Source: a bacterium (GTDB lineage Bacteria; UBP6; UBA1177; G963667425). From it: DNA of 64,000 nt. Positions 1 to 60,303 of this stretch are shown piece by piece. Positions within the stretch are counted from its first letter, which is position 1. The number at the start of each line of letters is the position of its first letter. Under the pieces are notes generated by a model. The model saw only the letters and a list, made by a program, of their open reading frames with translations, was not told the origin of the DNA and did not search any database. The DNA is taken from positions 2,009,226 through 2,073,225 of the forward strand of contig OY763407.1 of the NCBI GenBank assembly GCA_963667425.1, read 5' to 3'. The translations under genes and the position numbers were made by a program.

Positions 1-2896
1 AAGTGCTCTCACTGCTGCAATCTGAAAGAACAGAAAGTTCCGCATCAAAATTACCTTCTTCTCCTGATTTAGGTGTAACTTTAAAAACCATAGCACTTTT
101 TGCAGGAACAGAAACTTTGTAATAAAGATCAGGACCATAAGAATATCCGCCTGAGCAAGTGGTACTTCCATTCTGATCTGTTCCATTTTTTATACTTCTG
201 TCATATGTCCCGGCCGTTAAAGTTTCAGCTTTTTCGCAGCTGTTATTCTCATCAGGCTCAAACATGTTGAATTCAAGAGTATATGGAGAATTCATAAGCG
301 GTGTAACATACGGATGCTGGAAAACCTGAACATAAATAAAAGAATCAACATCGGAATGGTATTCTACGAACTCCGAAAAATAAGTCTGCTGATCATTACT
401 GTTTGCGATAACATCGCCGTTACTGTTGTAAATCACAACATAAGTTGCATTGCTTTTTTCGCCACAGAAAGGTCTTGTCCTTATGTTAAGATATTTTCCT
501 GCTTTTACTTCAAATTTATAAAAATCATTATCTCCATAGCCAAGTTTGCTTTCATGATAAAATGTTCCAAATATAAAGCCTTCCGTAACAAGCTGCGCCG
601 TTTCCAGCGTGTTGTTTGGTTCAATTTCCAGTGTTCCCTTTCTGCTGTCAGGAATACAGTCACCGGACACACATCTCATCATATCACAGTTACAGTCAGC
701 ATTTGTTACACAATATTCAGGCTGACATAAATTACTTCCGCAATCCTTACTGAAACATTCTCTGTTTTCAGCACATGCCCAGTAATCACGAACTGTAGGA
801 ACAGCACAAATACTGTTTCTGTTACAGAAAGCTCTTTCACTGCCGCATGAACTTCCGAAAGGATAGCAAACCTGACCGTTACAGTAAGTTCCTTCAGGAC
901 ATAATGCCGGATTATCCTGACAATCCTGAAGACAGAACTGCTCGCCTTCATACCCGATAACACATGAACCGTAATCATAGAAAACCACCTGACAATCGGT
1001 TTTAACTTCACATGAATTACAGGTTTTCTGATTTTCGGCAGGATCTACAGCATCATATCCTATACAGCCGGAATCTCCACTGCATTCTGTAGAACAGACA
1101 CCGTAAAGACATTGAGCATTCTTTTCACAATCATCATCAAACCTACAGACATTATAAAAACTTTGTCTCCATGGGTAGGCTTTTCTACAGACACCATCAA
1201 AACAACCACCTATGTCAAAACAATCAGCGTCAGATTCACAATTTACAGTACAATAGTAATCTTTTATTGTCTCATCTCCATAACAGATATCTTCACAAGA
1301 CCACACATACGGACAATTTTCTCCCGGCTTGAAATGCTTCTGTTCTTCAGCAACACAGAGACCCAAGTCCTTTGTTTCCGTCGTTCCATCTTCATTTTCA
1401 ACTTCATGGGAACCGTAAATATAACACGAACCTATTGCGCATTCACCATCTGTTTCACATGCTTTTGAGCAGAAAAGTCCATCCACGCATTCATATCCGT
1501 CACCGCACTGCCAGCTTGCGGTGCAGTCTTCACCAAATTCAAGGTGTCCCTTAACACTTTCAGGAAGACATGCATAATTGTTAGACGCCTTCACAAAGCC
1601 ACATTCCATATCTGTATTTGCTTCACATAAGTATGTTGTAACATTGTTTTCAGTTTTTTTAGTACAGTAATCACCGCAAATTTTCATATCAGAAAATTCT
1701 ATACAGTTACCGCTTGCACACTGAGAATCTTCTGAACACTCCTCTCCGTTAACCATATCAAATCTATTTGGATCATGGCAGGTTTTAACACCGTCCTGAT
1801 AAACATTCTCCATACATTCAAAACCTGAAGGACAAGGTGTAAGAATAGAAGAACAGGATGCAGTACAATAGCTGTCATAACATGCACCGCTACTGCAATC
1901 CATAACGGACTGACATGGTCCGCCAGTATCGACACTGCCTTTATGAACGCAATATTTTTCAAATTTAAAGCCACCGGCAGTTCCACCTTCCTTACATTTA
2001 CCACAACTTCCGCAGGAATCAGAAATAAGATTGGAAGTACACTCTTCGGAACAGAATCTTGCTTCGCCGCCATAACTAAGACAAAGACCACCTTCACAGT
2101 CATCATCAAGATTACACGGCTGAAAAGTTTTCATCTTGGGAGAAGGTCTTTTAAGCATTGAAACATACAATGGCCTGCACTGATAACCATACTCTTTAGA
2201 GTGATAATGGCAGTTCATACCGCCAGGACAATCTTCATCCTCTTTACATGTTCCGGTACAGACGCTTGCTTTTGTAAAAGCAGACATTCCATTTTCATCA
2301 GTTCCTGACCAGTCATATATAGTATCGCAAAAACCAGTTCCACATTCACTATTATAATTACAAGGCATTCCAGCCTTTAAACCATAAGGTCGGTTATCAC
2401 ATTCACCGAAACCATTACATGAACCATTTTTACACAGTCCACTACCCATAACACCGGAAACAGCTTCACATTCACTGTTCTCAGGTCTTGGACTCCAGCT
2501 GGTTTTTGATATATCCCTGTTACAGTAAGTACAAGTACTATCCGAATTAACTTCGCCATCCTTAATACATTTCCCATCAATTTCACAGGTAAGCCTGTCA
2601 CACAGACAAGTGAATCCGCCATTTTCATCAGGAACACACTGAGACCTGTTAGCTTCATTACATGGATTAGGATCACAAGGATTCTGAACAATCTGGTCAG
2701 CATCTTCAATTTCACCATCAGAATCAATAATTTCTGCATCCAAGTCATCTTCATCAGGTTCAGAATCTATAATAGAATCTGCATCCGATAAAATAGAATC
2801 CTCATCTGTAACATTTTTTTTACTGCTTCCATTATCACAAGAGACAGTAAAACAAAACAGGATAATACTAATAAAAAACAGGAATAATTTTTTCAT
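1..2896 (-). CDS. Very large secreted Cys-rich lipoprotein with acidic linker and C-terminal PPC (pre-peptidase C-terminal)-like domains; partial, 3' end runs off the window
   Basis: Absent from the ORF track because it has no stop in the window. My own translation from the ATG at 2894-2896 gives MKKLFLFFISIILFCFTVSCDNGSS (lipobox), then a D/E-rich linker, then many Cys modules (CNYNSECGTGFCD, CNLDDDCEGGLCL). Near the 3' part, GDNDFYKFEVKAGKYLNIRT (about 500-540) and DLYYKVSVPAKSAMVFKV match the PPC-domain pattern. The frame stays open to position 2. Confidence 0.8.
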   Translation of the reverse strand, partial: MKKLFLFFISIILFCFTVSCDNGSSKKNVTDEDSILSDADSIIDSEPDEDDLDAEIIDSDGEIEDADQIVQNPCDPNPCNEANRSQCVPDENGGFTCLCDRLTCEIDGKCIKDGEVNSDSTCTYCNRDISKTSWSPRPENSECEAVSGVMGSGLCKNGSCNGFGECDNRPYGLKAGMPCNYNSECGTGFCDTIYDWSGTDENGMSAFTKASVCTGTCKEDEDCPGGMNCHYHSKEYGYQCRPLYVSMLKRPSPKMKTFQPCNLDDDCEGGLCLSYGGEARFCSEECTSNLISDSCGSCGKCKEGGTAGGFKFEKYCVHKGSVDTGGPCQSVMDCSSGACYDSYCTASCSSILTPCPSGFECMENVYQDGVKTCHDPNRFDMVNGEECSEDSQCASGNCIEFSDMKICGDYCTKKTENNVTTYLCEANTDMECGFVKASNNYACLPESVKGHLEFGEDCTASWQCGDGYECVDGLFCSKACETDGECAIGSCYIYGSHEVENEDGTTETKDLGLCVAEEQKHFKPGENCPYVWSCEDICYGDETIKDYYCTVNCESDADCFDIGGCFDGVCRKAYPWRQSFYNVCRFDDDCEKNAQCLYGVCSTECSGDSGCIGYDAVDPAENQKTCNSCEVKTDCQVVFYDYGSCVIGYEGEQFCLQDCQDNPALCPEGTYCNGQVCYPFGSSCGSERAFCNRNSICAVPTVRDYWACAENRECFSKDCGSNLCQPEYCVTNADCNCDMMRCVSGDCIPDSRKGTLEIEPNNTLETAQLVTEGFIFGTFYHESKLGYGDNDFYKFEVKAGKYLNIRTRPFCGEKSNATYVVIYNSNGDVIANSNDQQTYFSEFVEYHSDVDSFIYVQVFQHPYVTPLMNSPYTLEFNMFEPDENNSCEKAETLTAGTYDRSIKNGTDQNGSTTCSGGYSYGPDLYYKVSVPAKSAMVFKVTPKSGEEGNFDAELSVLSDCSSEST

Positions 2897-3053
2897 TGAT
2901 AAATCCCTAACAAAAAATTTATAAACTGACAACAATTTGAGCCTAGCACAAAAAAGGGATAAATCAATAAAATCTCTACATTTTTCACACAATTAAAAAG
3001 AAAGGAAATTTCCCTGAAAAAGGGATAGATATTTAGAAATAAAAAAGAAATAT

Positions 3054-3608
3054 TTAGAATCTCAGACCTAAAAGAATATAAATATCTGGAATATATCGAG
3101 AAGTGTCTCCACAATATGTTCCATCTGGTTTTGCACAATCAGATTCTATAAATGCTTTATATGAAATAGGAAGTCCAACACCAATACGAAGCTGAAAAGC
3201 ACGATCATATGATAAATGGTTTATAAATGAAATTTCCGCTACAGCTTCATAGAAAGAAATTGTAGTATTAAAAATGTTTATACCTGTTCCAAAACCAGCG
3301 CCAATACGAATTTCATCTTTTTTATACCAGTTTAAAAAAATTGGAACCCCCACAACACTTTTCCCTTTTATTGAGAGTGAATCATAGAAATTACAAGCCC
3401 CTTGAATACTAATCATTTCCCAGAAAAAATACTTCCATCTGACTGTTGCAAAAGCAAAATTTGCTGTAGCACCATAAGTACTTCCACCAAGCGCAAAGGC
3501 AAACCACTCCGTTTTTTCATGACTATATCTGATAATTGGTTCATCCTCTGCAAAAAGCGAAAATGAAAGCACTGAAACTATAAAAAAAGCTAATATTCTA
3601 TTTTTCAT
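3054..3608 (-). CDS. Small signal-peptide protein, outer-membrane beta-barrel-like; paralog 1 of a tandem triplet
   Basis: Signal peptide MKNRILAFFIVSVLSFSLFAEDE. Shared motifs TEWF-FALG-YG and LRW--FFWE. Ends in GLRF (terminal Phe, typical of OMPs). GGAG lies upstream of the ATG. Confidence 0.7.
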   Translation of the reverse strand: MKNRILAFFIVSVLSFSLFAEDEPIIRYSHEKTEWFAFALGGSTYGATANFAFATVRWKYFFWEMISIQGACNFYDSLSIKGKSVVGVPIFLNWYKKDEIRIGAGFGTGINIFNTTISFYEAVAEISFINHLSYDRAFQLRIGVGLPISYKAFIESDCAKPDGTYCGDTSRYIPDIYILLGLRF

Positions 3609-3625
3609 CTGTTTTCTCCAACTAT

Positions 3626-4183
3626 TTAAAATCTTACGCCAGCAAATCCGTATATGTTTGGCATATAATAAATTTTATTGCAATTTTCTTCTCTTTCACC
3701 ACATTCAATTTCACCAAGTCTGCCTGTACCAAAAGGAAATTTTGCTGCTGCGCCAATCTGAAAAGCCATTTCATCAGAAATGTGAAAAACGTATGAAACT
3801 TCAGTCAAGGCATCGATAGAAGAAAAAGAATTTTTAAAGAACTCGGCACCTAAACTTAATCCAGCTGAAATTCTTATTTCATGTCTGTTATCATCCGTAA
3901 GAAAAAAAGGAATTCCGGAAGCAGTTTCAGCTCTCAGTGCAAAAGCATTCTGTGTAATAAAATCATAAGAACTCTGAATTCTTAAGGTTTCCCAAAAGAA
4001 AGAGTGCCATCTTAGCGTGCATACAGAAACATGCCCGCTTAAACCATAAGTTCCGTACCCTAAGGCAAATGAAAACCACTCCGTCTTTGTTTTGATAAAT
4101 CCGTGAGTATATTTCTGTTCTTCTGCAAAAAGTGAAAAAGAAAGCATAAAAATTATAAGAAAAGCTAATATTTTATTTTTCAT
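3626..4183 (-). CDS. Small signal-peptide protein, outer-membrane beta-barrel-like; paralog 2
   Basis: The track ORF 3626..4195 begins with TTG. The internal ATG at 4183 has GGAGG 5 nt upstream and gives MKNKILAFLIIFMLSFSLFAEE. Ends YMPNIYGFAGVRF. Confidence 0.7.
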   Translation of the reverse strand: MKNKILAFLIIFMLSFSLFAEEQKYTHGFIKTKTEWFSFALGYGTYGLSGHVSVCTLRWHSFFWETLRIQSSYDFITQNAFALRAETASGIPFFLTDDNRHEIRISAGLSLGAEFFKNSFSSIDALTEVSYVFHISDEMAFQIGAAAKFPFGTGRLGEIECGEREENCNKIYYMPNIYGFAGVRF

Positions 4184-4198
4184 ACATTCCTCCAACTA

Positions 4199-4807
4199 TT
4201 AAAATCTTACGCCAGCAAAACCATATATGTTGGGCATATAAACACTTTTATAATAATAACTCCCAAAAGCACTTGCAAACATTTCATCATCAGTAAAAAG
4301 TGGAAAATCGGCACTAACTCCCACCTGAATTGCAAATGAATCAAAAATTCGAGCAATATATGACAATTCAGTAGAAATATCTAAAAGATACCCATCTTTT
4401 TTATAACAGGATATTCCCAAACCTACTCCAGCACCAACTCTTATTTCATGCCTGTTATCAGCTGTAATAAAAAAAGGAAGGCCTGCTGAACTTTTAATTT
4501 TGAATGAAAATACACTATATTCAGAAGCGACACCAATTTCATTAATGATATTGTCGCGATCATTAGTTCTGGGATATGAAAAATCACGTGATGCATGAAG
4601 TTTCAATATTTCCCAGAAAGCATTTCTCCATCTTAAAGTAAATGCAGAAAAATTTAACGAATAGCCATAAGTTCCATAACCTGCTGAAAACGAGATCCAT
4701 TCTGTAGAAGTTCTTATAAAAACATGTTTATATTCAGTTTTTTCTTCTCCAAAGAGTTTAGCAGACAAAAACAGTATAAAAAATAAAAAAAACATTTTAC
4801 TTTTCAT
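4199..4807 (-). CDS. Small signal-peptide protein, outer-membrane beta-barrel-like; paralog 3
   Basis: The track ORF begins with GTG at 4828. The ATG at 4807 has GGGAGG upstream and gives MKSKMFFLFFILFLSAKLFGEE. Ends YMPNIYGFAGVRF, identical to paralog 2. Confidence 0.7.
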   Translation of the reverse strand: MKSKMFFLFFILFLSAKLFGEEKTEYKHVFIRTSTEWISFSAGYGTYGYSLNFSAFTLRWRNAFWEILKLHASRDFSYPRTNDRDNIINEIGVASEYSVFSFKIKSSAGLPFFITADNRHEIRVGAGVGLGISCYKKDGYLLDISTELSYIARIFDSFAIQVGVSADFPLFTDDEMFASAFGSYYYKSVYMPNIYGFAGVRF

Positions 4808-4954
4808 CAATACCCTCCCAACTGGCACAGCTTACAGCCTATATTTAATAGACGAATAAGCGAAGTCAAAATGTTCAATTTTTTTCAGACTATTTTAGAA
4901 CCAGCTGGTTTTACTAGGCTATTTTTTTATGAAAAGGACTGAAAAAGTGCTGTT

Positions 4955-5851
4955 TCAGATTTTATGAACAATTCTTTTACTGCTGCTTCTTGTAATTTTG
5001 CTTCCAATCATAATTACAAAAAGACCTGCTATGAAAAAAAGAGAAATTTTTTCACCATAAAACATAATTGAAAATAGAGTTGCAACTGCCGGTTTAAGAA
5101 AAAAGACAAGTGATGTCGAAGATGCGGAAAGTATTTTAAGCATGTTGAAAAAAACTATGTAGCTTATTCCGCTTACAACTATTCCGACATATAAAAATGA
5201 TGCCAGATATTGCTTATCGGCAAATATTTCATGCGGGATTGCTAATGAGTTTCCCTGAACGAGCAAAATTATAAGAGAAAATATAAGCCCGGAGGCAAAA
5301 CTTACAGTGTTAACTGTTATTGGTGAAATACCGTTTGAGTATTTTTTGCCAAGCACTGTATAAAGTGCAAAACTGACTGCACCAAGCATAGCATAAACGA
5401 TCCCTAAATCGAGCGACAAGCCTTTGTTCAGAGCAATAATCACAACACCCGTCATCCCTACCAGAAAACCTGCAAGTTTTTTCATAGAAAGTTTTTCAAT
5501 ATTAAGTATGTGGGAAAATCCAAGCACAAAAAGGGGATTTGATGAGAAAACAACTGCCGCTGTTGCAGGTGTGGTATTTTTTATAGCAAGCTGAAGCATT
5601 GTCATTGAAAATGTTATGTTAAGAAATCCAAGCCCTGCAAGATGAATCAGATCTTTTTTGCTTAATGCTTTTATTTCAGAGATTCTTTTTGTTGATATCT
5701 GAAAAACAGCAAGAACAGCAAAACCTATAACAAATCTGTAAAATGTAAGCAAAAACGGGTCAATAACACCCATAAGCGGTTTTGATGCAACTTCCATTGA
5801 ACTGAAAATTATAACGGCTGCAATAAAATATATCAGACCTTTTCTGTCCAT
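4955..5851 (-). CDS. EamA/DMT-superfamily permease
   Basis: 298 aa with about 10 hydrophobic helices in the two-repeat EamA-like layout. Overlaps the upstream gene by 19 nt, so probably the same operon. Confidence 0.8.
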   Translation of the reverse strand: MDRKGLIYFIAAVIIFSSMEVASKPLMGVIDPFLLTFYRFVIGFAVLAVFQISTKRISEIKALSKKDLIHLAGLGFLNITFSMTMLQLAIKNTTPATAAVVFSSNPLFVLGFSHILNIEKLSMKKLAGFLVGMTGVVIIALNKGLSLDLGIVYAMLGAVSFALYTVLGKKYSNGISPITVNTVSFASGLIFSLIILLVQGNSLAIPHEIFADKQYLASFLYVGIVVSGISYIVFFNMLKILSASSTSLVFFLKPAVATLFSIMFYGEKISLFFIAGLFVIMIGSKITRSSSKRIVHKI

Positions 5852-7050
5852 AATCTGCCATCCTTAACTCTGATTCTGATTGTTTTGCACTCTTTGAGCA
5901 CGCCTTCGCCAAAGTAATCAACTGTCAGATAGTTTGCTGCTGTTCCTGAAAAATGGTTCTTACCTTTTTCTTCTTCAAGAATCATTGTGGTTACCAATCC
6001 GTCACATTTATCAATATATTCTCTTCTTTTCACTTCAAAGAGCTCTCTCATTTTCCTTGCTCTCTCTTTTTTTATATCAGAAGGAACTGACTCCTTTTTC
6101 TCAAGCTCATAACCTTTTGTCCCTTTTCTAGGAGAAAACGGAAAAACATGACCATAAGCAAGAGGAAGCTTTTTTATAAGATTAAATGATGCCATGAAAT
6201 CTTCATCTGTCTCACCTGGAAAGCCGACAATAACATCTGTACCGACAGCCACACTGTTTGAGCCATCATCTGTAAGTCTCATTACTGCCTTTGCAAAATC
6301 TTCAGCCGGATATGGGCGGTTCATCTTTTTTAAAATGGAATCACTTCCGCTTTGCAGTGAAATGTGCCAATGCGGCAGCACTTTCCCCTCTTCAGCCATT
6401 TCAAAAAGCTTTTCTGAAATTTCAAGACACTCCATAGAGCCTAGCCTTACCCTTCCTATCTTTTCAAAAGCAAGATTGGCAACATCGGCAAGTGTTTCTC
6501 TGTAGTTATTATCTTTTCCATATCTTCCAATGTGTATACCTGTCAGAACAACTTCATTAAAATCTTTATTTTTAAGGTCATCAAGAACTTTTGAAATATC
6601 TGACATTGGAACACTTTTTATTTTACCGCCTCTGACATACGGAATTATGCAGTATGTGCAGAACTGATCGCAGCCGTCCTCAATTTTAAGAAAAGGTCTT
6701 GCTCTTGAAAAATCGACAGCAAAGAGTATTTCCGATTCAAAAAATGAGGCGACCTTTTCAATTGAATTTAAATAGAGCGCATCAGCATCTTCAGGCATAC
6801 TGCTGTATTCTTTTCTTGTTCCGCAGCCTGTAACTATGACTTTGCCTTTTTTTGAAAGGCGGCGAATCATATTTCTAACCTGCGAATCGGTTGCAGAAGT
6901 TACAGTACAGCTGTTTATGATATAAAAATCGGCATCTTCTTCAGGTGAAACTATTTCAATGTTCTTAAGAGACTCTTTCAGCTGCTCGGTCTCAAAGAGA
7001 TTGACTTTGCAGCCGAAAGTATAGAAGGCAACCTTAGGAATTCTGACCAT
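5833..7050 (-). CDS. Radical-SAM methylthiotransferase of the MiaB/MtaB family
   Basis: N-terminal UPF0004-type FYTFGCKVN, radical-SAM CDQFCTYCIIPYVRG, and a C-terminal TRAM-like region. Confidence 0.85.
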   Translation of the reverse strand: MVRIPKVAFYTFGCKVNLFETEQLKESLKNIEIVSPEEDADFYIINSCTVTSATDSQVRNMIRRLSKKGKVIVTGCGTRKEYSSMPEDADALYLNSIEKVASFFESEILFAVDFSRARPFLKIEDGCDQFCTYCIIPYVRGGKIKSVPMSDISKVLDDLKNKDFNEVVLTGIHIGRYGKDNNYRETLADVANLAFEKIGRVRLGSMECLEISEKLFEMAEEGKVLPHWHISLQSGSDSILKKMNRPYPAEDFAKAVMRLTDDGSNSVAVGTDVIVGFPGETDEDFMASFNLIKKLPLAYGHVFPFSPRKGTKGYELEKKESVPSDIKKERARKMRELFEVKRREYIDKCDGLVTTMILEEEKGKNHFSGTAANYLTVDYFGEGVLKECKTIRIRVKDGRLWTEKV

Positions 7051-18378: not shown

Positions 18379-19053
18379 TCACATACCAAGCTTACTGAAC
18401 CACTCATTGTTGCCCTTAAATGCAACTTTTGCAAGAAGTTTAAGATCACTTACAAAATCTTCAAGCTCGGCAATTCTGGCATCTCTTGCATCAGTTGCGG
18501 CAACAGCTTCAGCCTTTTCCTTTTCAGCTGTTATTCTCTTTTCTGAAACGTTATCAACAAGGGTTCTGCGACCTTTGAGCTTTTCATCTGTAAGACCAAA
18601 CTCGCTTAAAGTCTCGGTAACTTCACTGTTTCCAAGTGCATTGTCATAAAATGTTCTAAGCTCTGATATCCACGACGAATAGGCTCTGTTTCTTGAGCCT
18701 TTAAGATTTAAAAGAGTCTCTTTTTCACTGTCATTTTCAAATGCGATTCTTGCAATTTTAACATCTTTCATGTAAAGGGTGTCAAGCTCGCCTTTTGCAC
18801 TGTTAAATTCCTCAACTGCCTTATACTGCTCGGAGTATTCCTTTTTCTGGGCATTTACACTTTCAATTGTACGTTCCAGAATAAGCAGTGCATTGACAAG
18901 TTCGGTATCTCCTATTCCGTACTTTCCAATTGCGCTCTTCATTTCGGGGTTGTTTCTGATACCTTTGATGATGAGTTCTGCATTTGTGATTCTATCATCT
19001 ACAGAAATCGTTTTTACAGTTCTCTTTTTCGTTTCTTTTACTTCTTCAGCCAT
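18379..19053 (-). CDS. Hypothetical cytoplasmic, predicted all-helical protein (224 aa)
   Basis: Strong RBS (AGGAG 7 nt upstream of the ATG at 19053). No signal peptide. K/E-rich helical composition. I recognise no family. 10-nt gap to the next gene. Confidence 0.7.
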   Translation of the reverse strand: MAEEVKETKKRTVKTISVDDRITNAELIIKGIRNNPEMKSAIGKYGIGDTELVNALLILERTIESVNAQKKEYSEQYKAVEEFNSAKGELDTLYMKDVKIARIAFENDSEKETLLNLKGSRNRAYSSWISELRTFYDNALGNSEVTETLSEFGLTDEKLKGRRTLVDNVSEKRITAEKEKAEAVAATDARDARIAELEDFVSDLKLLAKVAFKGNNEWFSKLGM

Positions 19054-19103
19054 AAGTTACTCCTGCTTTATGATTGGTAAAACCGTTTATATGACAAAGT
19101 AAC

Positions 19104-19312
19104 GGCACTATGTCATGCCTGCAATGAAAAAAATGGTAAGTGGCAGTTGCAGTGTCATTCCCGCACTCAAAAGAATCATTAAGCGGCGCAGCAATGTCAT
19201 GCCTGCAATAAAATAAATGGTTCGTAACAGACGCAATGCCTTTTCTGCACGGGAAAAAACGCCCCGTGGCAGACGCAATGCCTTTTCTGCACGAAAAAAA
19301 TCGCTCTGCGGC
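19104..19312. repeat. Five degenerate, contiguous tandem repeats of about 41-43 bp, GC-richer than the flanks
   Basis: Units are 19104-19144, 19145-19187, 19188-19228, 19229-19270 and 19271-19312. Units 4 and 5 share an identical 22-mer, AGACGCAATGCCTTTTCTGCAC. Units 1 and 3 share ATGTCATGCCTGCAAT. Most units have a GGCA-loop-TGCC mini-hairpin and an A/T run. Confidence 0.85.
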
Positions 19313-19441
19313 GCTCCTTTGCTTTTCCTCTCTTTGCACCCATGACGTTGTAAAGGTAAAACGCCTTAAAATTTTGCTTACCTGCGACAATGTATCTCTG
19401 ATTTGTTCCATGCTACACACTTTTTGTAATCGTTTTGACTT

Positions 19442-19469
19442 ATTTTATTAAATGAGGCGGTGATGTAAA
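19442..19469 (-). promoter_or_regulatory. Possible sigma70-type promoter reading into the repeat array and the 224-aa gene
   Basis: On the minus strand: TTTACA (19469-19464), 16 nt, TAAAAT (19447-19442). It sits just downstream of the CARF-nuclease stop. Confidence 0.3.
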
Positions 19470-19485
19470 GAAAAAAGTTTATCTC

Positions 19486-21060
19486 TCAGAGATATCTTTC
19501 CGCTATTGAAAGGAGTTTTGTCTCTATCTGATCTAGCGGCGTGACTGTTTTGTCGGTCTGGGTGAGAAAATTTATCCATGTGCTTGTGTGTCTTACCCCT
19601 TTTTTGCGGAGCTGGCTCATGAAATGCTGGTCTTTTGTTTCGAGTTTTTCAATGTCTGTTGATGACCATGGAAAAACGATGTCCATTTCGACTGTTCTGC
19701 CGAGATATTTCCTTATTACAAGTAGTCTTGAGTTTATATCTTTGTTGTATGTCTGGCTGCTTTTGGCTTCAAAGATATGGATGTGTCCGTTTCCGAATAC
19801 GACCATTGTGTCGAGTTCTATCATTGTGCCGAGTTCTTTGTCTATTTTTACGTTCTGATAGACTGATGTTATGCTTTCTTTGAGTATGGGGTTCTTTTCG
19901 ATTGCTCTGCATACGGCGTAGCTTACAAGTTTTTCAAATACGTTTGCTATTGTTGTTCTGCTGGTAAGGAAAACCTTTTCGCCTGATTCATCTATTAATG
20001 GTTTGGAACTGTAGCTGTTATATAACTGTTCAGGAAAGCTTACCTGATTTATTTTTCTCATTGTCTTGCCGTACTGCATCATTGTGAATGTTGTGTCGGA
20101 TGCGAGTGCTGCGATTTTGCTTTTCACTTCGTTTGATATTTCCGCAAAGTTTCCGGTTATGATTTTATCAATGTTGTGATAAAGTTTTGTTTCTGATGCT
20201 TTTACAACTTCACTGTAGTCTTCAAAAAACTTGGGATCTGAAATGTACTCTTCCCTGAAGTAGTTTACAAAGGTGTTTTTAAGTTCCTTCACTGTGTTTT
20301 TTATGGCATCTAATGAGTCGTTTTCGTTTCTCGGTATTATTCCGGTGAGTGTGTCTTCTACTTCGGAGAGTTCTTTTTCTATGAATTTGTGAATTATCGA
20401 TTCGTCTCCGTATTTTGATGCGGCTTCTTTTATGTTTTCAAATGAGAGGAAGTAGGATCTGAGGTTTACGTCGCCGCATATTTCATCAAAGAGTCTGCTG
20501 TAGCTTTCCAGTCCTGTGAACCAGCAGTATTTGTCGTTATAGATTTCCTTGTATTCCCGAAGTGTTGCACCGTACATTTCGACTCTTTCCTTTATGTTCC
20601 AGTCGAATTTTACGGGGAAGGTTTCCTGTGCAAAGCTTTTTTCGTGTACTTTTATAAGGTATATTTTTCTCACGTCAGGGTCGAAGTATATCATTGAAAA
20701 GGAAATATTTACTTTTTCAGCGAGTCTTTTAAGGTAGTTCCCGGCTGTTATTCTGTGGATTCCCTTTCCTGAGCTTGCATCGAGCACCATGTTTGTCACT
20801 TTTTTCTCAGCTATGAGCTCTCTTGTGTGTATTTTTATGATGTCTACTATTGCTGTCATCGTGGATGTCTTGTCGATGAAGATGTTTTTGTATTCTATGG
20901 CTTTTCCGCTTAGTGAAACAAGTAGCGGAATCTGCTCGTACCATTTTTCTTCTGCCGCTTTGGGTGTTGTGAAAAAGAGTATGTAGTCGGGGTTTGCCTG
21001 TTTTATTATAGATGCCTGAACAACTGTCTGTCTTGAGACAAAAGCAATTAGTAGGTTCAT
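19486..21060 (-). CDS. Card1/Can2-like (DUF1887-type) protein: N-terminal CARF-like domain, long inserted helical region, C-terminal PD-(D/E)xK nuclease
   Basis: The ATG at 21060 has AGGAG 5 nt upstream; the track ORF starts at 21096. NLLIAFVSRQTVVQASIIKQ resembles the Card1 beta1 strand (LVSEQTIPN type). VLDASSGKG (aa 92-100) sits where Card1 has ITGGTK. The nuclease core is FEKLV (E376), ELD (D417) and IFEAKS (E431, K433), at 19762-19818. Confidence 0.6.
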   Translation of the reverse strand: MNLLIAFVSRQTVVQASIIKQANPDYILFFTTPKAAEEKWYEQIPLLVSLSGKAIEYKNIFIDKTSTMTAIVDIIKIHTRELIAEKKVTNMVLDASSGKGIHRITAGNYLKRLAEKVNISFSMIYFDPDVRKIYLIKVHEKSFAQETFPVKFDWNIKERVEMYGATLREYKEIYNDKYCWFTGLESYSRLFDEICGDVNLRSYFLSFENIKEAASKYGDESIIHKFIEKELSEVEDTLTGIIPRNENDSLDAIKNTVKELKNTFVNYFREEYISDPKFFEDYSEVVKASETKLYHNIDKIITGNFAEISNEVKSKIAALASDTTFTMMQYGKTMRKINQVSFPEQLYNSYSSKPLIDESGEKVFLTSRTTIANVFEKLVSYAVCRAIEKNPILKESITSVYQNVKIDKELGTMIELDTMVVFGNGHIHIFEAKSSQTYNKDINSRLLVIRKYLGRTVEMDIVFPWSSTDIEKLETKDQHFMSQLRKKGVRHTSTWINFLTQTDKTVTPLDQIETKLLSIAERYL

Positions 21061-21071
21061 TTTTTCTCCTT

Positions 21072-22814
21072 TTATGGAAGTATGATAAGAGAGCATCCGC
21101 TCGATTTTCTTGGTTTTTCTGCTGGAACGCCGCTGTCTTCGTCTGGAGTTTCTGATGAGTCATCGGTATCTTCGTCAGGCACTTCGATGTTTTCACATTC
21201 TGTTCCGCCCCAACCACCTATCGTGTCAATTTCAATTGATGTTTTTGATATATCGAAATCTATTTTACCTTTTACGCTTCCATTGTCCCAGTAGTTTTCG
21301 GTTGTAGATGGTACTCTGTATTTTGGTGCGTATGCATTTGCAAGGTGAACTCCCATTTTATGCCCTTTGTTGAATATTATTGATAGGTATCCGACGTTGA
21401 ATTCCATTTCTGTTAAAACGTCTGACTCTATTAGCTTTTCATTTTCGAGTCCGTCACGGAATCTTACTTTTCTTCCCCCTTCGAGCATGAGATATTCCGT
21501 GCCGTCAGGATAGATGTCGGTTATTACTGCAACTAAGTCAAAGTCTTTAAGCTCTGTTGTAAAAGCTGTTTTAACATTTATTGCACCTGTAAGTTCGGTC
21601 GGCTCATCGAATGGTTCTGTCTCAAATGATATTACATCTTTTCTTAATCTGTAGACTGAAACGTCGCATGGTCCTGGGTTTATTGTAAGGTTGTTGCCGC
21701 ATATCGTAGGGAAAGGGTTTGCGTAATCAAAGTTAAGAACGAAATTTCCCTTTCCGCATCTCCCTTTTTTAAGTTTAAGGTTTTCGTCTGCGGTAAGTAT
21801 AACTTTTACTGCATTTTCCGGTGGAAATGTTTCGGATGTTTTCCATTCGTTTCCCGGAGCGGATGTGTCTGAAACGTCTCCGATTGTATAGTATGTAACA
21901 GCTGCCAGTGCTGCTTTAGGCATAGTTGGGAAAAGGTAGTGAAAAAGAAGCATATATGCGGGATCATCTTCACCTTCAAAATATCTTGCCGCATTTTCGG
22001 GGAATGTGAGTGAGCCGGATTTGGAGGTTGAAATGGTTCCGTGAGACCATGGTCCTATTACAAGATGCTGATCAGGCGCACTACTTTCCTGATAGAGTTT
22101 AAAGGTGTCGATCTGCTCTCTTGTAAACATGTCGAACCAGCCTGAAATATGTGTTGCAGGAATGGTAAGGTTTGCTTTTCTTGTAAAGAGATCTGTATCA
22201 TTCCAATAGCTGTTTGTTTTGCTGTACATGTTGTCTTTCATGAGATCCTCTATGAAAAAAGAGGCTCCCTGATCCTGTAGCCATAATGTCATTGCATGTT
22301 CACGAAGCATTCCTCCGGGAAAAAATACGCCATCGTAAAGGTCTCCTGCGGCAATTGAGATAATCTGATAGACTAAAGAAGGTTTTTCATCGAGTCCTGC
22401 CATGAAGTACTGGGTAAGTCCTTCGGCTGATCCACCTATTGTAGCTATTTTCCCGTTGCACCATGTCTGAGCTGTTATCCATTTTAAAGTATCGTAGCCG
22501 TCTTTTTTTTCTCCCCAGCCATCTGAGTGCCAGACAGAATGGATTCCTTCCGATCCGAGCCTTCCGCGAACTGACTGTGCAACAAATATGACTCCGTTTG
22601 TGGAAAGTGTTTTTCCTATTTCTTCCTTATCTTCCCTGTTGTATGGTGAGCGGTTTAGAATAACAGGATATGTGTTTCCTTCCATGTTGTCAGGAAAATA
22701 TATATCAGCCGCGAGATTTGTTCCATCGTCCATAGGAATATCAAAAGTCTTTTTCTCAAATGCAGATAATACTGATACTAAAAGAAGAGTTACAATAATT
22801 AAAAGCTTTTTCAT
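21072..22814 (-). CDS. CocE/NonD-family hydrolase (S15 X-Pro dipeptidyl-peptidase-like), secreted, with acidic C-terminal tail
   Basis: Signal peptide MKKLLIIVTLLLVSVLSA. FDIPMDDGTNLAADIYFP...PVILNRSPY. GGSAEG nucleophile elbow. The ATG at 22814 has GGAG upstream. Confidence 0.8.
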   Translation of the reverse strand: MKKLLIIVTLLLVSVLSAFEKKTFDIPMDDGTNLAADIYFPDNMEGNTYPVILNRSPYNREDKEEIGKTLSTNGVIFVAQSVRGRLGSEGIHSVWHSDGWGEKKDGYDTLKWITAQTWCNGKIATIGGSAEGLTQYFMAGLDEKPSLVYQIISIAAGDLYDGVFFPGGMLREHAMTLWLQDQGASFFIEDLMKDNMYSKTNSYWNDTDLFTRKANLTIPATHISGWFDMFTREQIDTFKLYQESSAPDQHLVIGPWSHGTISTSKSGSLTFPENAARYFEGEDDPAYMLLFHYLFPTMPKAALAAVTYYTIGDVSDTSAPGNEWKTSETFPPENAVKVILTADENLKLKKGRCGKGNFVLNFDYANPFPTICGNNLTINPGPCDVSVYRLRKDVISFETEPFDEPTELTGAINVKTAFTTELKDFDLVAVITDIYPDGTEYLMLEGGRKVRFRDGLENEKLIESDVLTEMEFNVGYLSIIFNKGHKMGVHLANAYAPKYRVPSTTENYWDNGSVKGKIDFDISKTSIEIDTIGGWGGTECENIEVPDEDTDDSSETPDEDSGVPAEKPRKSSGCSLIILP

Positions 22815-58097: not shown

Positions 58098-60224
58098 TTA
58101 TTCACTTCTTAGCTGTTGTTGTACTCCGTTATTTCCCTTATTACCATCACTCTCTCCACCTTTACCAGCAGCTCCCAAAACAAAGGATGCTTTAGAAACA
58201 TCTATTTGTGAAGATTCTATCATAATTACACCAATAGAAGGACCGCCGCCACCGCCGCCGCCAGCTCCACCAGCTCCACCAGCTCCACCGTTGCCTCCAA
58301 AACCGCCGCAACCTGCATCGTCCTGATCAGAACTATATGCACCTGGAATACCGCCATTGCCACCTGTACCACCTGTGCCACCAACGCCACCTGTGCCGCC
58401 ATTACCACCTGTACCGGTTTTTATTTCTGTGTAATCAAAATATATTTTCATAGACGAATTTACCCATACAGCAAATGAACCGCCACCACCAGCTCCACCA
58501 GTACCGCCAGCTCCACCACATCCAGCTCCTCCACCACCACCGCCGGCAGAACCGTATGTTGAACAGTCACTAAAAGCATTGTTATCTTTGTGTCCTTTTC
58601 CACCGCCACCGCCGCCACCGGAAACACCTCTCGTTCCTTCCAAACCATCCCCTCCTTTAGAGGGAATATATGAAGAAGAATCGGCATAACCAAAAGCACT
58701 GCCAGCCTGACCATCATCACCTGCATCTCCATTATGACCATTTCTTCCATTTGCAGCATATGTGGGAATTGGGTTTCCATCCGTTGAACAGGAAAGATCA
58801 CTAGTCAAAGTTCCGCCTGTACCAGTATTTATTCCATTATCCTGACCCTGAAGATTGTTGTTTGAACCTTCAACACCTTCTGAACCGTCGTAGCCAGGGT
58901 ATCCGCCATCGCCACCTTTTGTTCCACATGCCGAATAACCTCCCGAACCGTAAGCAGGCTGACTACAGTTTCCACCACAACCAATAAGGTCATCATCACT
59001 TTCACAGCCTGGAGCTCCAGTTCCACCATTACTACCAGAAGCTCCTGTAGCACCTGTAATACCGTCAAGACCTTTTTTGCCATTTCCTGAAACTATATAG
59101 GAATGTCTTATGGAAATGTTCATACTACTGTTTATAAAAATACCATAGGAAGATTCCCCATTTTCCTCAGCATCATCAGCATTAATAGAAATATATGTCA
59201 TTTCAATATTTTCACATTGAGAAATTATAACAGGTTTGTTAGAACCTTTAATTGTAACAAAATTTGAAGTAGATCTTACCCAATCAGGATAACCGCTATA
59301 GCCACCATAAAGGGATACATTGCTTTTTAGCGTTACTGGTCCGTCATATTCACCTTTTGCAATAAGTATTGCAGGTTTATATTCAGCTGTTGCAAGCACT
59401 AAAGCTTTTGTTATACTTCTGACAGGAAGATCTTTTGTTCCTTCATTAAGGTCACTGCCATAAACTGAATCTACAAAAATAGATTTTTCAATGTTTCCAT
59501 CTATTCCGTCACCATTACTGTCTATAAAGTTATCGTCAGGTTTGTCTTCTGTTATATTAGGTTTTGTTTCACATGTTGATGTGTCAAATCTAACGCAGTT
59601 TGCTGTACAGTAGGCTGTTCCTCCTGAAAATGTGGAAGAATCTATCAGCGTGCATAGTCTGGAATTTCCATCACAAACCTCATTAGCCTGAATTGTACCG
59701 TCACCACAGGTAGTAACAACAACATCACTGTCTGGAAGAGCATTGTCATCATCAGAAAAATCTTCATCAGATTCTATATCTAAATCAGGATCAATATCAG
59801 TAAAAATATCAAGATCATCTTTTTCAATATCTGAATCCATATCGTTTTCAGAATCTGAAACAGGTATATCTTCATCGTTCATATAATCTTCATCATCAAT
59901 CAAAGAATCATTATCAATATCAGGAATTTCAGCATAGTCAGCATCAAAAACGGCTATATCTTCATCATTTCTTTCTCCAGGTCTGCAATAGCCATCTGTT
60001 GCACAATAAAAACCATCAAGGCATGCATCGTTTGTCATGCATGTATACAATGTTGAACATTCTCCTTCTTTCACACCTGTGTCATTAACCTTTCCAGCAG
60101 AAAAATCACAGTATGTTCCTGTTTTGCATTCGGTATCATTAAGGCATGTGTTATCTGTTTTTTTATCATCACATGCAGAAACAAAAAATAAAAGCAATGT
60201 GATAAAAACTAAATAAAACTTCAT
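58098..60224 (-). CDS. Lipoprotein: Cys-rich N-terminus, acidic linker, Myxococcus-type Cys-rich repeat, right-handed beta-helix region, long Gly-rich C-terminus
   Basis: The MKFYLVFITLLLFFVSACDDK start at 60224 has GAGG upstream. TTCGDGTIQANEVCDGN matches the CGDG..E.CD repeat. IFVDSVYGSDLNEGTKDLPVRSITKAL is a beta-helix N-cap. C-terminal GGxGG runs end in GGAGGAGGAGGGGGGGP. Confidence 0.7.
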   Translation of the reverse strand: MKFYLVFITLLLFFVSACDDKKTDNTCLNDTECKTGTYCDFSAGKVNDTGVKEGECSTLYTCMTNDACLDGFYCATDGYCRPGERNDEDIAVFDADYAEIPDIDNDSLIDDEDYMNDEDIPVSDSENDMDSDIEKDDLDIFTDIDPDLDIESDEDFSDDDNALPDSDVVVTTCGDGTIQANEVCDGNSRLCTLIDSSTFSGGTAYCTANCVRFDTSTCETKPNITEDKPDDNFIDSNGDGIDGNIEKSIFVDSVYGSDLNEGTKDLPVRSITKALVLATAEYKPAILIAKGEYDGPVTLKSNVSLYGGYSGYPDWVRSTSNFVTIKGSNKPVIISQCENIEMTYISINADDAEENGESSYGIFINSSMNISIRHSYIVSGNGKKGLDGITGATGASGSNGGTGAPGCESDDDLIGCGGNCSQPAYGSGGYSACGTKGGDGGYPGYDGSEGVEGSNNNLQGQDNGINTGTGGTLTSDLSCSTDGNPIPTYAANGRNGHNGDAGDDGQAGSAFGYADSSSYIPSKGGDGLEGTRGVSGGGGGGGKGHKDNNAFSDCSTYGSAGGGGGGAGCGGAGGTGGAGGGGSFAVWVNSSMKIYFDYTEIKTGTGGNGGTGGVGGTGGTGGNGGIPGAYSSDQDDAGCGGFGGNGGAGGAGGAGGGGGGGPSIGVIMIESSQIDVSKASFVLGAAGKGGESDGNKGNNGVQQQLRSE

Positions 60225-60303
60225 ATAAGACCTCATAAATTTAAATTATGCAGAGAAATTATACGGATATAAAGAAGAATCTCAATAACTTTATACAAAA
60301 TTA

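Follow-up and report, generated by a model that had tools for sequence, protein, structure and literature searches.

Tandem arrays phased at 21 bp and located upstream of a gene of the PQLLE family form, together with this gene, a conserved two-part module that occurs across phyla. In this module the array is the non-coding cis element. Unit size, array length (~200 bp) and position (array end ~50-100 nt ahead of the start codon) are kept between loci whereas the repeat sequence is not. The window analysed here, a 64,000-nt stretch of bacterial DNA lying on a 2.95-Mb contig, carries one array that we assign to this PQLLE-linked class with little doubt. As to its role, the reading that we place first, although with less than even confidence, is that its units serve as DNA binding sites set in phase with the helix, to which the pseudo-dimeric PQLLE protein would probably bind.

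The repeat array and its partner gene in the window

The original prediction, made from the sequence alone, had described five contiguous, degenerate tandem repeats of ~42 bp, and a repeat search, TRF run at lenient settings and a scan of all 64 kb bear this out. The array spans window positions 19105-19323 and comprises ~4.6-5 copies of 42 bp showing 65-74% identity, arranged without spacers. Four in-register copies were recovered by the repeat search at 19110-19301 (spacing 42/42/42, 65-74% identical to the reference copy), and the fifth unit is partial, extending to ~19319. Lenient TRF gave two descriptions of the span 19105-19327, period 42 with 4.6 copies (score 197) and period 84 with 2.7 copies (score 215); at default stringency the array was undetected by this program. 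When periodicity was scanned over the whole window (lags 9-129, 126-nt windows, match ≥0.58), only the array and one 9-bp coding repeat at 58242 passed, which places the array far beyond chance. The coding repeat lies in an ORF at 58098-60236 on the minus strand, whose segment 58242-58620 contains 9- and 18-bp coding repeats (CCAGCTCCA and CCACCTGTA) and an ACC-type triplet run, suggesting a Gly-rich repeat protein.

The words reported as shared between units are present as well: the 16-mer ATGTCATGCCTGCAAT is common to units 1 and 3, and units 4 and 5 hold an identical 24-mer. Two other descriptions held only in part. The array had been called GC-rich in an AT-rich genome and some enrichment does exist, but at 45.5% GC vs 36-41% in the flanks it is modest and was overstated. 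Short GC stems had been proposed for the units; the hairpin CACGGG-N9-CCCGTG is indeed found in unit 4 but is absent from the other units, and GC stems are neither kept from unit to unit nor accompanied by extra folding energy. The 21-nt sub-units of the array show as matches to the family PWM spaced ~21 nt apart on the plus strand; lag 21 is not prominent in the plain autocorrelation.

The features of the locus, in window coordinates, are:

18379..19053, minus strand: gene for a 224-aa PQLLE-family protein (NCBIfam NF052641) and conserved array partner (profile match, codon score +0.46).
19054..19104, minus strand: non-repeated gap of ~51 nt from array to start codon, with a weak promoter-like match TTGTCA-16-AATCAT (9/12).
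19060..19064, minus strand: Shine-Dalgarno sequence AGGAG, 6 nt before the PQLLE ATG (read from the sequence).
19105..19323, no strand assigned: tandem array of five 42-bp units, or about ten 21-bp sub-units of two alternating types (repeat search, TRF).
~19110, 19152, 19194, 19236 and 19278, plus strand: starts of the array units.
19046..19420, minus strand: 124-aa ORF spanning the array, not regarded as a gene (no homologue, codon usage).
19442..19469, minus strand: best sigma-70-like match, TTTACA-16-TAAAAT (10/12), upstream of the array (consensus only).

The 224-aa gene had been described as unknown and the array had been tied to its CARF neighbour; instead, this gene proved to be the conserved partner of the array. 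Its product matches NF052641 over the full length (E 4.6e-54, 183 bits vs a cut-off of 80), and its ATG at 19053 lies ~52 nt beyond the array in the reading direction of the minus strand. An exhaustive HMMER search (E<1e-3) showed a large family, of 1578 or more clusters at 50% identity. Its named members belong to Cyanobacteria, Bacteroidota (Reichenbachiella, Draconibacterium, Parabacteroides, Capnocytophaga) and Ignavibacteria, and cultured carriers include Reichenbachiella versicolor, Draconibacterium halophilum and Capnocytophaga cynodegmi. Within the family, the window protein is a divergent member: its identity to any cluster representative is ≤36%, and it carries no literal C-terminal PQLLE motif, ending in ...GNNEWFSKLGM. 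The NF052641 model carries no function, and the term 'PQLLE' in this sense is absent from the literature searched.

An AlphaFold2 model based on a 75-sequence alignment (pLDDT 97.5) predicts an all-alpha, internally duplicated protein, in which a module composed of a 17-residue helix, an 8-residue helix, a 56-residue helix and a short helix occurs twice. The two halves are homologous as judged by BLASTP (E 3e-4). Family members are mildly acidic (median pI 5.6). Pfam, PHROGs and PADLOC gave no match to the PQLLE protein; Foldseek against PDB and BFVD and a PDB profile search retrieved only generic long helical bundles (best E 0.04-0.1), and no known DNA- or RNA-binding fold was recognised by Pfam, PDB sequence search or Foldseek. 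A tblastn search of plasmids and phages with one member, and an IMG/VR scan, returned nothing from the family.

The CARF neighbour (19486-21096, minus strand) encodes a stand-alone 536-aa CARF and PD-(D/E)xK nuclease-like protein (PADLOC CARF_PDDEXK 6e-9, Csx1 3e-5), and no CRISPR array or cas genes were seen beside this gene. The repeat array itself was rejected as a CRISPR array: its units are contiguous, without spacers, and only the stand-alone CARF-PD(D/E)xK gene is adjacent.

Array-gene pairing across the PQLLE family

Scans with a single protein found one relative in genome contigs (L001) and none in metagenome contigs. This relative, 29% identical and from a cyanobacterium-like MAG, has a tandem array of at least 10 units of 21 bp directly upstream. 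A wider set was assembled from 11 loci obtained by exact protein look-up and 80 from metagenomes, the latter recovered with an 8-sequence sub-alignment, as a 62-sequence alignment was too diverse for the pattern search. After removal of duplicates, 63 loci with ≥250 nt upstream were retained; the sources are Cyanobacteria, Bacteroidota, Ignavibacteria and metagenomes. For each region we recorded whether the best lag fell in the set 21/42/63/84 (±1), where 13% is expected by chance, and whether the match was also ≥0.55:

Upstream, 63 loci: best lag in the set, 58; also match ≥0.55, 51.
Coding (control), 69 loci: best lag in the set, 13; also match ≥0.55, 0.
Downstream (control), 55 loci: best lag in the set, 10; also match ≥0.55, 1.

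A periodicity of 21 bp or a small multiple is thus the strongest one upstream of 58 of 63 non-redundant PQLLE loci, and the controls are practically free of it. The sole downstream control match, L047, looks like the start of a second module. Its second array (~1175-1389, period 42 bp, match 0.79) starts 55 nt past the PQLLE stop and may be a tandem second module, the contig ending before any gene is visible.

The arrays typically have 6-16 units and a median length of 207 bp, and lie 44-293 nt (10th-90th percentile; median 78) from the ATG. The window array, with its 219 bp, period of 42 and end at -52, falls inside these ranges. Arrays are built on a period of 21 (in some cases 20-20.5) that is compounded into 42, 63 and 84, and units commonly alternate between 2-3 subtypes; TRF scored 42 highest in 23 loci, 63 in 14 and 21 in 8. 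By contrast with this regular layout, repeat sequences differ almost completely between loci, and that of the window is unrelated to the other PQLLE-linked arrays. Comparison of repeat number between relatives, as proposed originally, showed that near-identical loci differ in copy number (12.5 in L019 vs 16.5 in L020; 13.3 in L031 vs 10.3 in L032; L081 and L084 also differ).

Circular alignment of 21-nt profiles yielded a weak sense-strand consensus, G-A-A-A-T-(G/C)-(A/G)-T-T, then A and C ~10-12 nt on, with ~5.5 bits in total. Fit to this consensus was better in the sense orientation for 53 of 55 arrays, and a leave-one-out k-mer strand classifier assigned 55 of 57 correctly, showing that the arrays possess a polarity of their own, which as a rule agrees with that of the gene. 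In 50 of 61 arrays the sense strand is rich in A. The clear exceptions are the window array and L002, both of which score strongly as inverted (for the window, -0.73, -0.54 and -0.40 at k = 2, 3 and 4, against family means of +0.57, +0.44 and +0.35). In the window, the family-type A-rich strand with the consensus G-A-A-A-T-S-R-T-T...C is the plus strand, antisense to the PQLLE gene, and not the sense strand of the gene. The window copy is unusual by its inverted polarity, as it is by its clean 42-bp organisation.

Within the unit, conservation is anticorrelated at lag 5 (-0.23) and reaches +0.06 (SEM 0.04) at lag 10, which indicates two conserved patches about one helical turn apart. A half-period of ~10.5 bp is visible in some arrays, for instance as GAAC in L006 and L074. 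Six moderately diverged pairs show array change at ~0.4-0.85 times the rate of third codon positions; between very close strains the arrays outpace the gene, chiefly because units are gained or lost.

No conserved neighbour gene besides PQLLE was found, only scattered Uma2, IS200, DUF559, PD-(D/E)xK and toxin-antitoxin genes, which leaves PQLLE as the one gene constantly found with the array. The loci often lie in variable or defence-type regions (KAP NTPase, type I restriction system, HepT/MNT, Uma2, DUF559). In L010 (ERZ22147072 ctg24714l, 1-6700), the PQLLE gene and a 41-bp-period array are located inside a type II CRISPR-Cas locus, in the order cas9, PQLLE module, a 207-aa gene, then cas1-cas2. 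Two PQLLE paralogues occur in MAG GCA_964542005.1, and the 21-bp repeat differs from one to the other. One apparent exception is L092, whose protein is among the closest to the window protein (33% identity): the 239 nt available upstream (1-239) hold no 21-bp array, only A-rich GCAAAAA runs.

Other elements occur around the arrays. In the MAG GCA_964542005.1, perfect short-unit arrays are present a few hundred nt upstream of the 21-bp arrays, in L003/L004 (545-596, GCAGTTCC x 6.5) and in L093 (1-48, a (GGTCGCT)n array). In L006, three 56-nt repeats with an inverted repeat (CCCTCTCC...GAGGGA) lie at ~3490-3660, ~110 nt upstream of the 21-bp array. Between array and ATG, the cyanobacterial-type loci L042, L050, L054, L058 and L023 share a conserved motif of ~45 nt, GTGTACAACyyTACAGACrTCGGGCAyCyTAAACrCGCAA, which could be a promoter, operator or leader element. 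The near-identical L027 and L028 differ by ~160 nt of inserted small palindromic elements between array and gene; the array-to-gene distance is thus not tightly fixed in that lineage.

Possible roles of the array

In the arrangement that we tentatively favour, each 21-bp unit, corresponding to two turns of B-DNA, would be a binding site and all sites would face the same side of the helix. The PQLLE protein made from the adjacent gene, elongated, helical and made of two homologous halves, would bind its own upstream array, either as one protein per 42-bp A/B dimer or with one half per 21-bp unit. Assembly of the protein along the array would then produce a nucleoprotein complex controlling at least its own promoter. 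Four features favour such a DNA array: the 10-nt sub-periodicity, the 42-bp A/B alternation, the absence of any other conserved partner and the survival of the array when inverted. The lag-5/lag-10 pattern fits contacts made once per helical turn, and the A/B alternation parallels the two homologous halves of the protein. We also counted in its favour the slower change of arrays relative to third codon positions in the six pairs, which implies constraint.

Other observations count against DNA sites of this kind. By Pfam, PDB and Foldseek, the PQLLE protein resembles no DNA-binding fold, and the median pI of the family is mildly acidic. The array comes within 3-30 nt of the ATG in L003 (-3), L067 (-9) and L093, and must there lie inside the transcript. 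Sigma-70-like matches amount to 2.4 per kb upstream of arrays vs 1.0 in the array-gene gap. The faster-than-gene change in very close pairs and the lack of an array upstream of the L092 gene were also counted on this side, and the polarity kept in 55 of 57 loci would equally fit a role as RNA. Two other DNA-level candidates were rejected. Stacked sigma-70 or ECF promoters do not account for the arrays, inside which promoter-like matches are rarest and whose spacing is unfit for the general consensus; nor can phased A-tract curvature be the sole explanation, several arrays (L006, L031, L042) being without A-tracts.

Several of the same observations point to an unstructured repeated mRNA leader, the main alternative, which we take seriously although we hold it somewhat less probable than DNA sites. 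Here a promoter upstream of the array would give the PQLLE mRNA a long 5' UTR, whose repeated motif could be bound by the PQLLE protein itself (autoregulation of translation or stability) or by a host RNA-binding protein, or could act as a sponge. Such a leader would explain arrays that abut the ribosome-binding site or ATG, as in the three loci just mentioned, and several others that end 30-45 nt before the ATG, leaving no room for a promoter. It would also be consistent with the kept polarity, with the A-rich sense strand and with the absence of folding (mean z ~0, see below), as expected of a single-stranded binding platform. Promoter-like matches are ~2.4-fold denser upstream of arrays than in the gap, and the best match of the window (19442..19469) is likewise upstream; if this promoter is used, the array would be transcribed in a ~380-nt leader. 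However, the placement of promoters by consensus is weak and not decisive: three sigma-70-like matches were found at the locus vs 2.1 expected in shuffles. Against a leader stands the inversion of the array in the window and in L002, where the mRNA would bear the complement of the repeats. A DNA site still works when inverted, so the presence of inverted arrays at these two loci favours DNA sites over a sequence-specific leader. Moreover, a period of two DNA turns with a 10-nt sub-periodicity has no obvious RNA rationale. A CsrA-type GGA sponge was rejected, GGA motifs being present in only some arrays.

A functionless satellite, formed where an intergenic site permits replication slippage or unequal crossing-over and retained although it does nothing, appears improbable. 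It would account for the variation in copy number between the near-identical loci (L019/L020, L031/L032, L081/L084), for the lack of sequence conservation between loci and for the higher-order structure of 42, 63 and 84, which is typical of satellite dynamics. It would not account for arrays of the same unit size, similar length and polarised consensus that accompany one family, at 58 of 63 loci across phyla, with none in controls.

We regard as very unlikely a guide-RNA array of TIGR or CRISPR type, whose variable segments would be processed to ~21- or 42-nt guides for the PQLLE protein. Some arrays (L012, L038, L009) do consist of a 5-8-nt invariant core and 13-16 variable nt, the neighbourhoods are variable and rich in defence genes, with one locus within cas9-cas1, and TIGR arrays likewise have two alternating short repeats beside a gene for a small helical coiled-coil protein (PMC12045711). 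Yet the 'variable' parts recur, as in the 24-mer of window units 4 and 5 and in an 84-bp repeat of four units in L005, and many arrays are nearly homogeneous (L001, L019, L029). The PQLLE protein, in addition, has no similarity to Nop-domain or Cas proteins by Pfam, PDB sequence search or Foldseek.

The array had further been proposed to be a structured RNA array or a 14-aa Cys-repeat micro-protein. Two of the underlying observations are correct: the minus-strand ORF at 19046..19420 is open through all units, and its stop overlaps the start of the 224-aa gene in ATGGCTGA. These, the upstream ORFs called by gene finders in L003 (125 aa) and L006 (63 aa) and the unit 4 hairpin are what speaks for a 124-aa Cys-repeat protein whose translation is coupled to that of the 224-aa gene, or for an array of RNA hairpins. 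The ORF has no homologue among 5.8 billion (5.8e9) proteins except itself, as a gene-finder call recorded as a 121-aa protein. Its codon-usage log-odds of -0.14 per codon is lower than that of all 103 real-gene chunks of the window (mean +0.40) and falls inside the distribution of non-coding frames, whereas the 224-aa gene scores +0.46. Stops occur in all three sense frames in 16 of 61 family arrays, the other 45 having at least one open sense frame, and some arrays have a period of 20, 41, 62 or 82, one cyanobacterial array holding a 20-nt unit; translation is therefore not the conserved property. Since 42 = 3 x 14, a unit free of stops in one frame leaves this frame open through every copy, and the ORF is an expected by-product of the repeat. 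It is very probably spurious, and the 125-aa and 63-aa ORFs of L003 and L006 are probably artefacts too. A repeat peptide or RiPP-like precursor was rejected on the same grounds, with no conserved ORF of coding signature running through the repeats. For annotation, this means that ORFs called through such arrays are artefacts and that the arrays can be used as a marker of PQLLE genes.

RNA structure fares no better. No Rfam match was obtained in the window at gathering score, nothing meaningful at a permissive threshold (E up to 10) in 18900-19600, and none on nine related loci. Folding of the window array gave z-scores of -1.0 (minus strand) and -0.56 (plus strand) against dinucleotide shuffles, and the mean z over 53 related arrays is +0.11 in sense and -0.14 in antisense. 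With a mean z of ~0 across 53 arrays, RNA structure is not conserved: the arrays neither fold nor are conserved ORFs, and neither strand beats shuffled sequence. With the unit 4 hairpin not kept elsewhere in the array, the coupled protein and the hairpin array are the least credible of the readings considered and can practically be set aside.

Comparison with known systems

Helix-phased direct repeats of 11-22 bp are known from iterons associated with a Rep gene (theta plasmids, the phage lambda origin) and from the parC-ParR and tubC-TubR systems. Such iteron- or centromere-like repeats adjoin the gene of their binder, upstream of it, and serve both as binding platform and as operator. The likeness of these systems to the PQLLE module concerns the proposed mode of action, as their defining proteins are absent here. 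Unlike Rep, ParR and TubR, the PQLLE protein has no winged-helix or ribbon-helix-helix similarity, and the adjacent gene gave no match to a Rep-type initiator in Pfam or PDB sequences and no Foldseek match better than E 0.1. PQLLE loci also appear to be chromosomal and, in contrast to the iteron, parC and tubC systems, are without a partner ATPase or replication genes. Among the three readings of the original prediction, a protein-binding iteron set comes nearest to the evidence.

TIGR arrays are composed of two alternating short repeats in units of ~36-42 nt, with unique 9-nt spacers, and give rise to 36-nt RNAs (PMC12045711). TIGR-Tas and PQLLE loci resemble each other in having ~5-15 short units with alternating sub-repeats, an adjacent gene for a small helical protein and poor sequence conservation. 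They differ in that TIGR-Tas has a Nop domain and unique 9-nt spacers, whereas no Nop, Nop5 or TasR match was found here and non-core segments are duplicated. Both the 24-mer of units 4 and 5 and the 16-mer of units 1 and 3 recur in the window array, which therefore lacks the unique spacers characteristic of TIGR.

A further resemblance is to the 'enigmatic' bacterial tandem repeats, which have a constant unit of 20-21 nt (also 40-41 or 52) and a variable sequence and are present in many groups including Cyanobacteria (PMC8161180). Arrays of this constant-size class are abundant in Bacillus, with up to ~29 per genome, and Subirana and Messeguer proposed either that proteins polymerise on the DNA or that the repeats are transcribed into small RNAs (Int J Mol Sci 2021, PMC8161180). 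The window array fits this class: in both cases the repeats are non-coding, the unit covers about two DNA turns and the sequence is species-specific with a short core kept. The difference lies in the partner, since no associated gene or protein was named for the earlier class whereas PQLLE-linked arrays accompany a single gene family, at a set position and in a set polarity.

No report linking such an array to a PQLLE gene, or 20-21-nt repeats to a protein, was found in the literature searched. Whether the PQLLE protein and its phased array make up an undescribed, autonomous two-component system, a nucleoprotein or ribonucleoprotein filament or sensor in which the protein would be the dedicated partner of 20-21-nt repeats and which would have spread through Cyanobacteria, Bacteroidota and further phyla, is a question on which we are evenly divided. 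Such a system would often reside in defence or other variable islands, and once inside a cas9-cas1 locus. The pairing in any case merges two puzzles, the constant-size repeats and the large PQLLE family, into one testable question, namely whether PQLLE proteins recognise their own repeats and, if so, in DNA or in RNA form. If PQLLE proteins bind their own repeats, they would represent a new, compact and sequence-diversifying system of protein-repeat recognition, which may act in gene control or in genome conflict.
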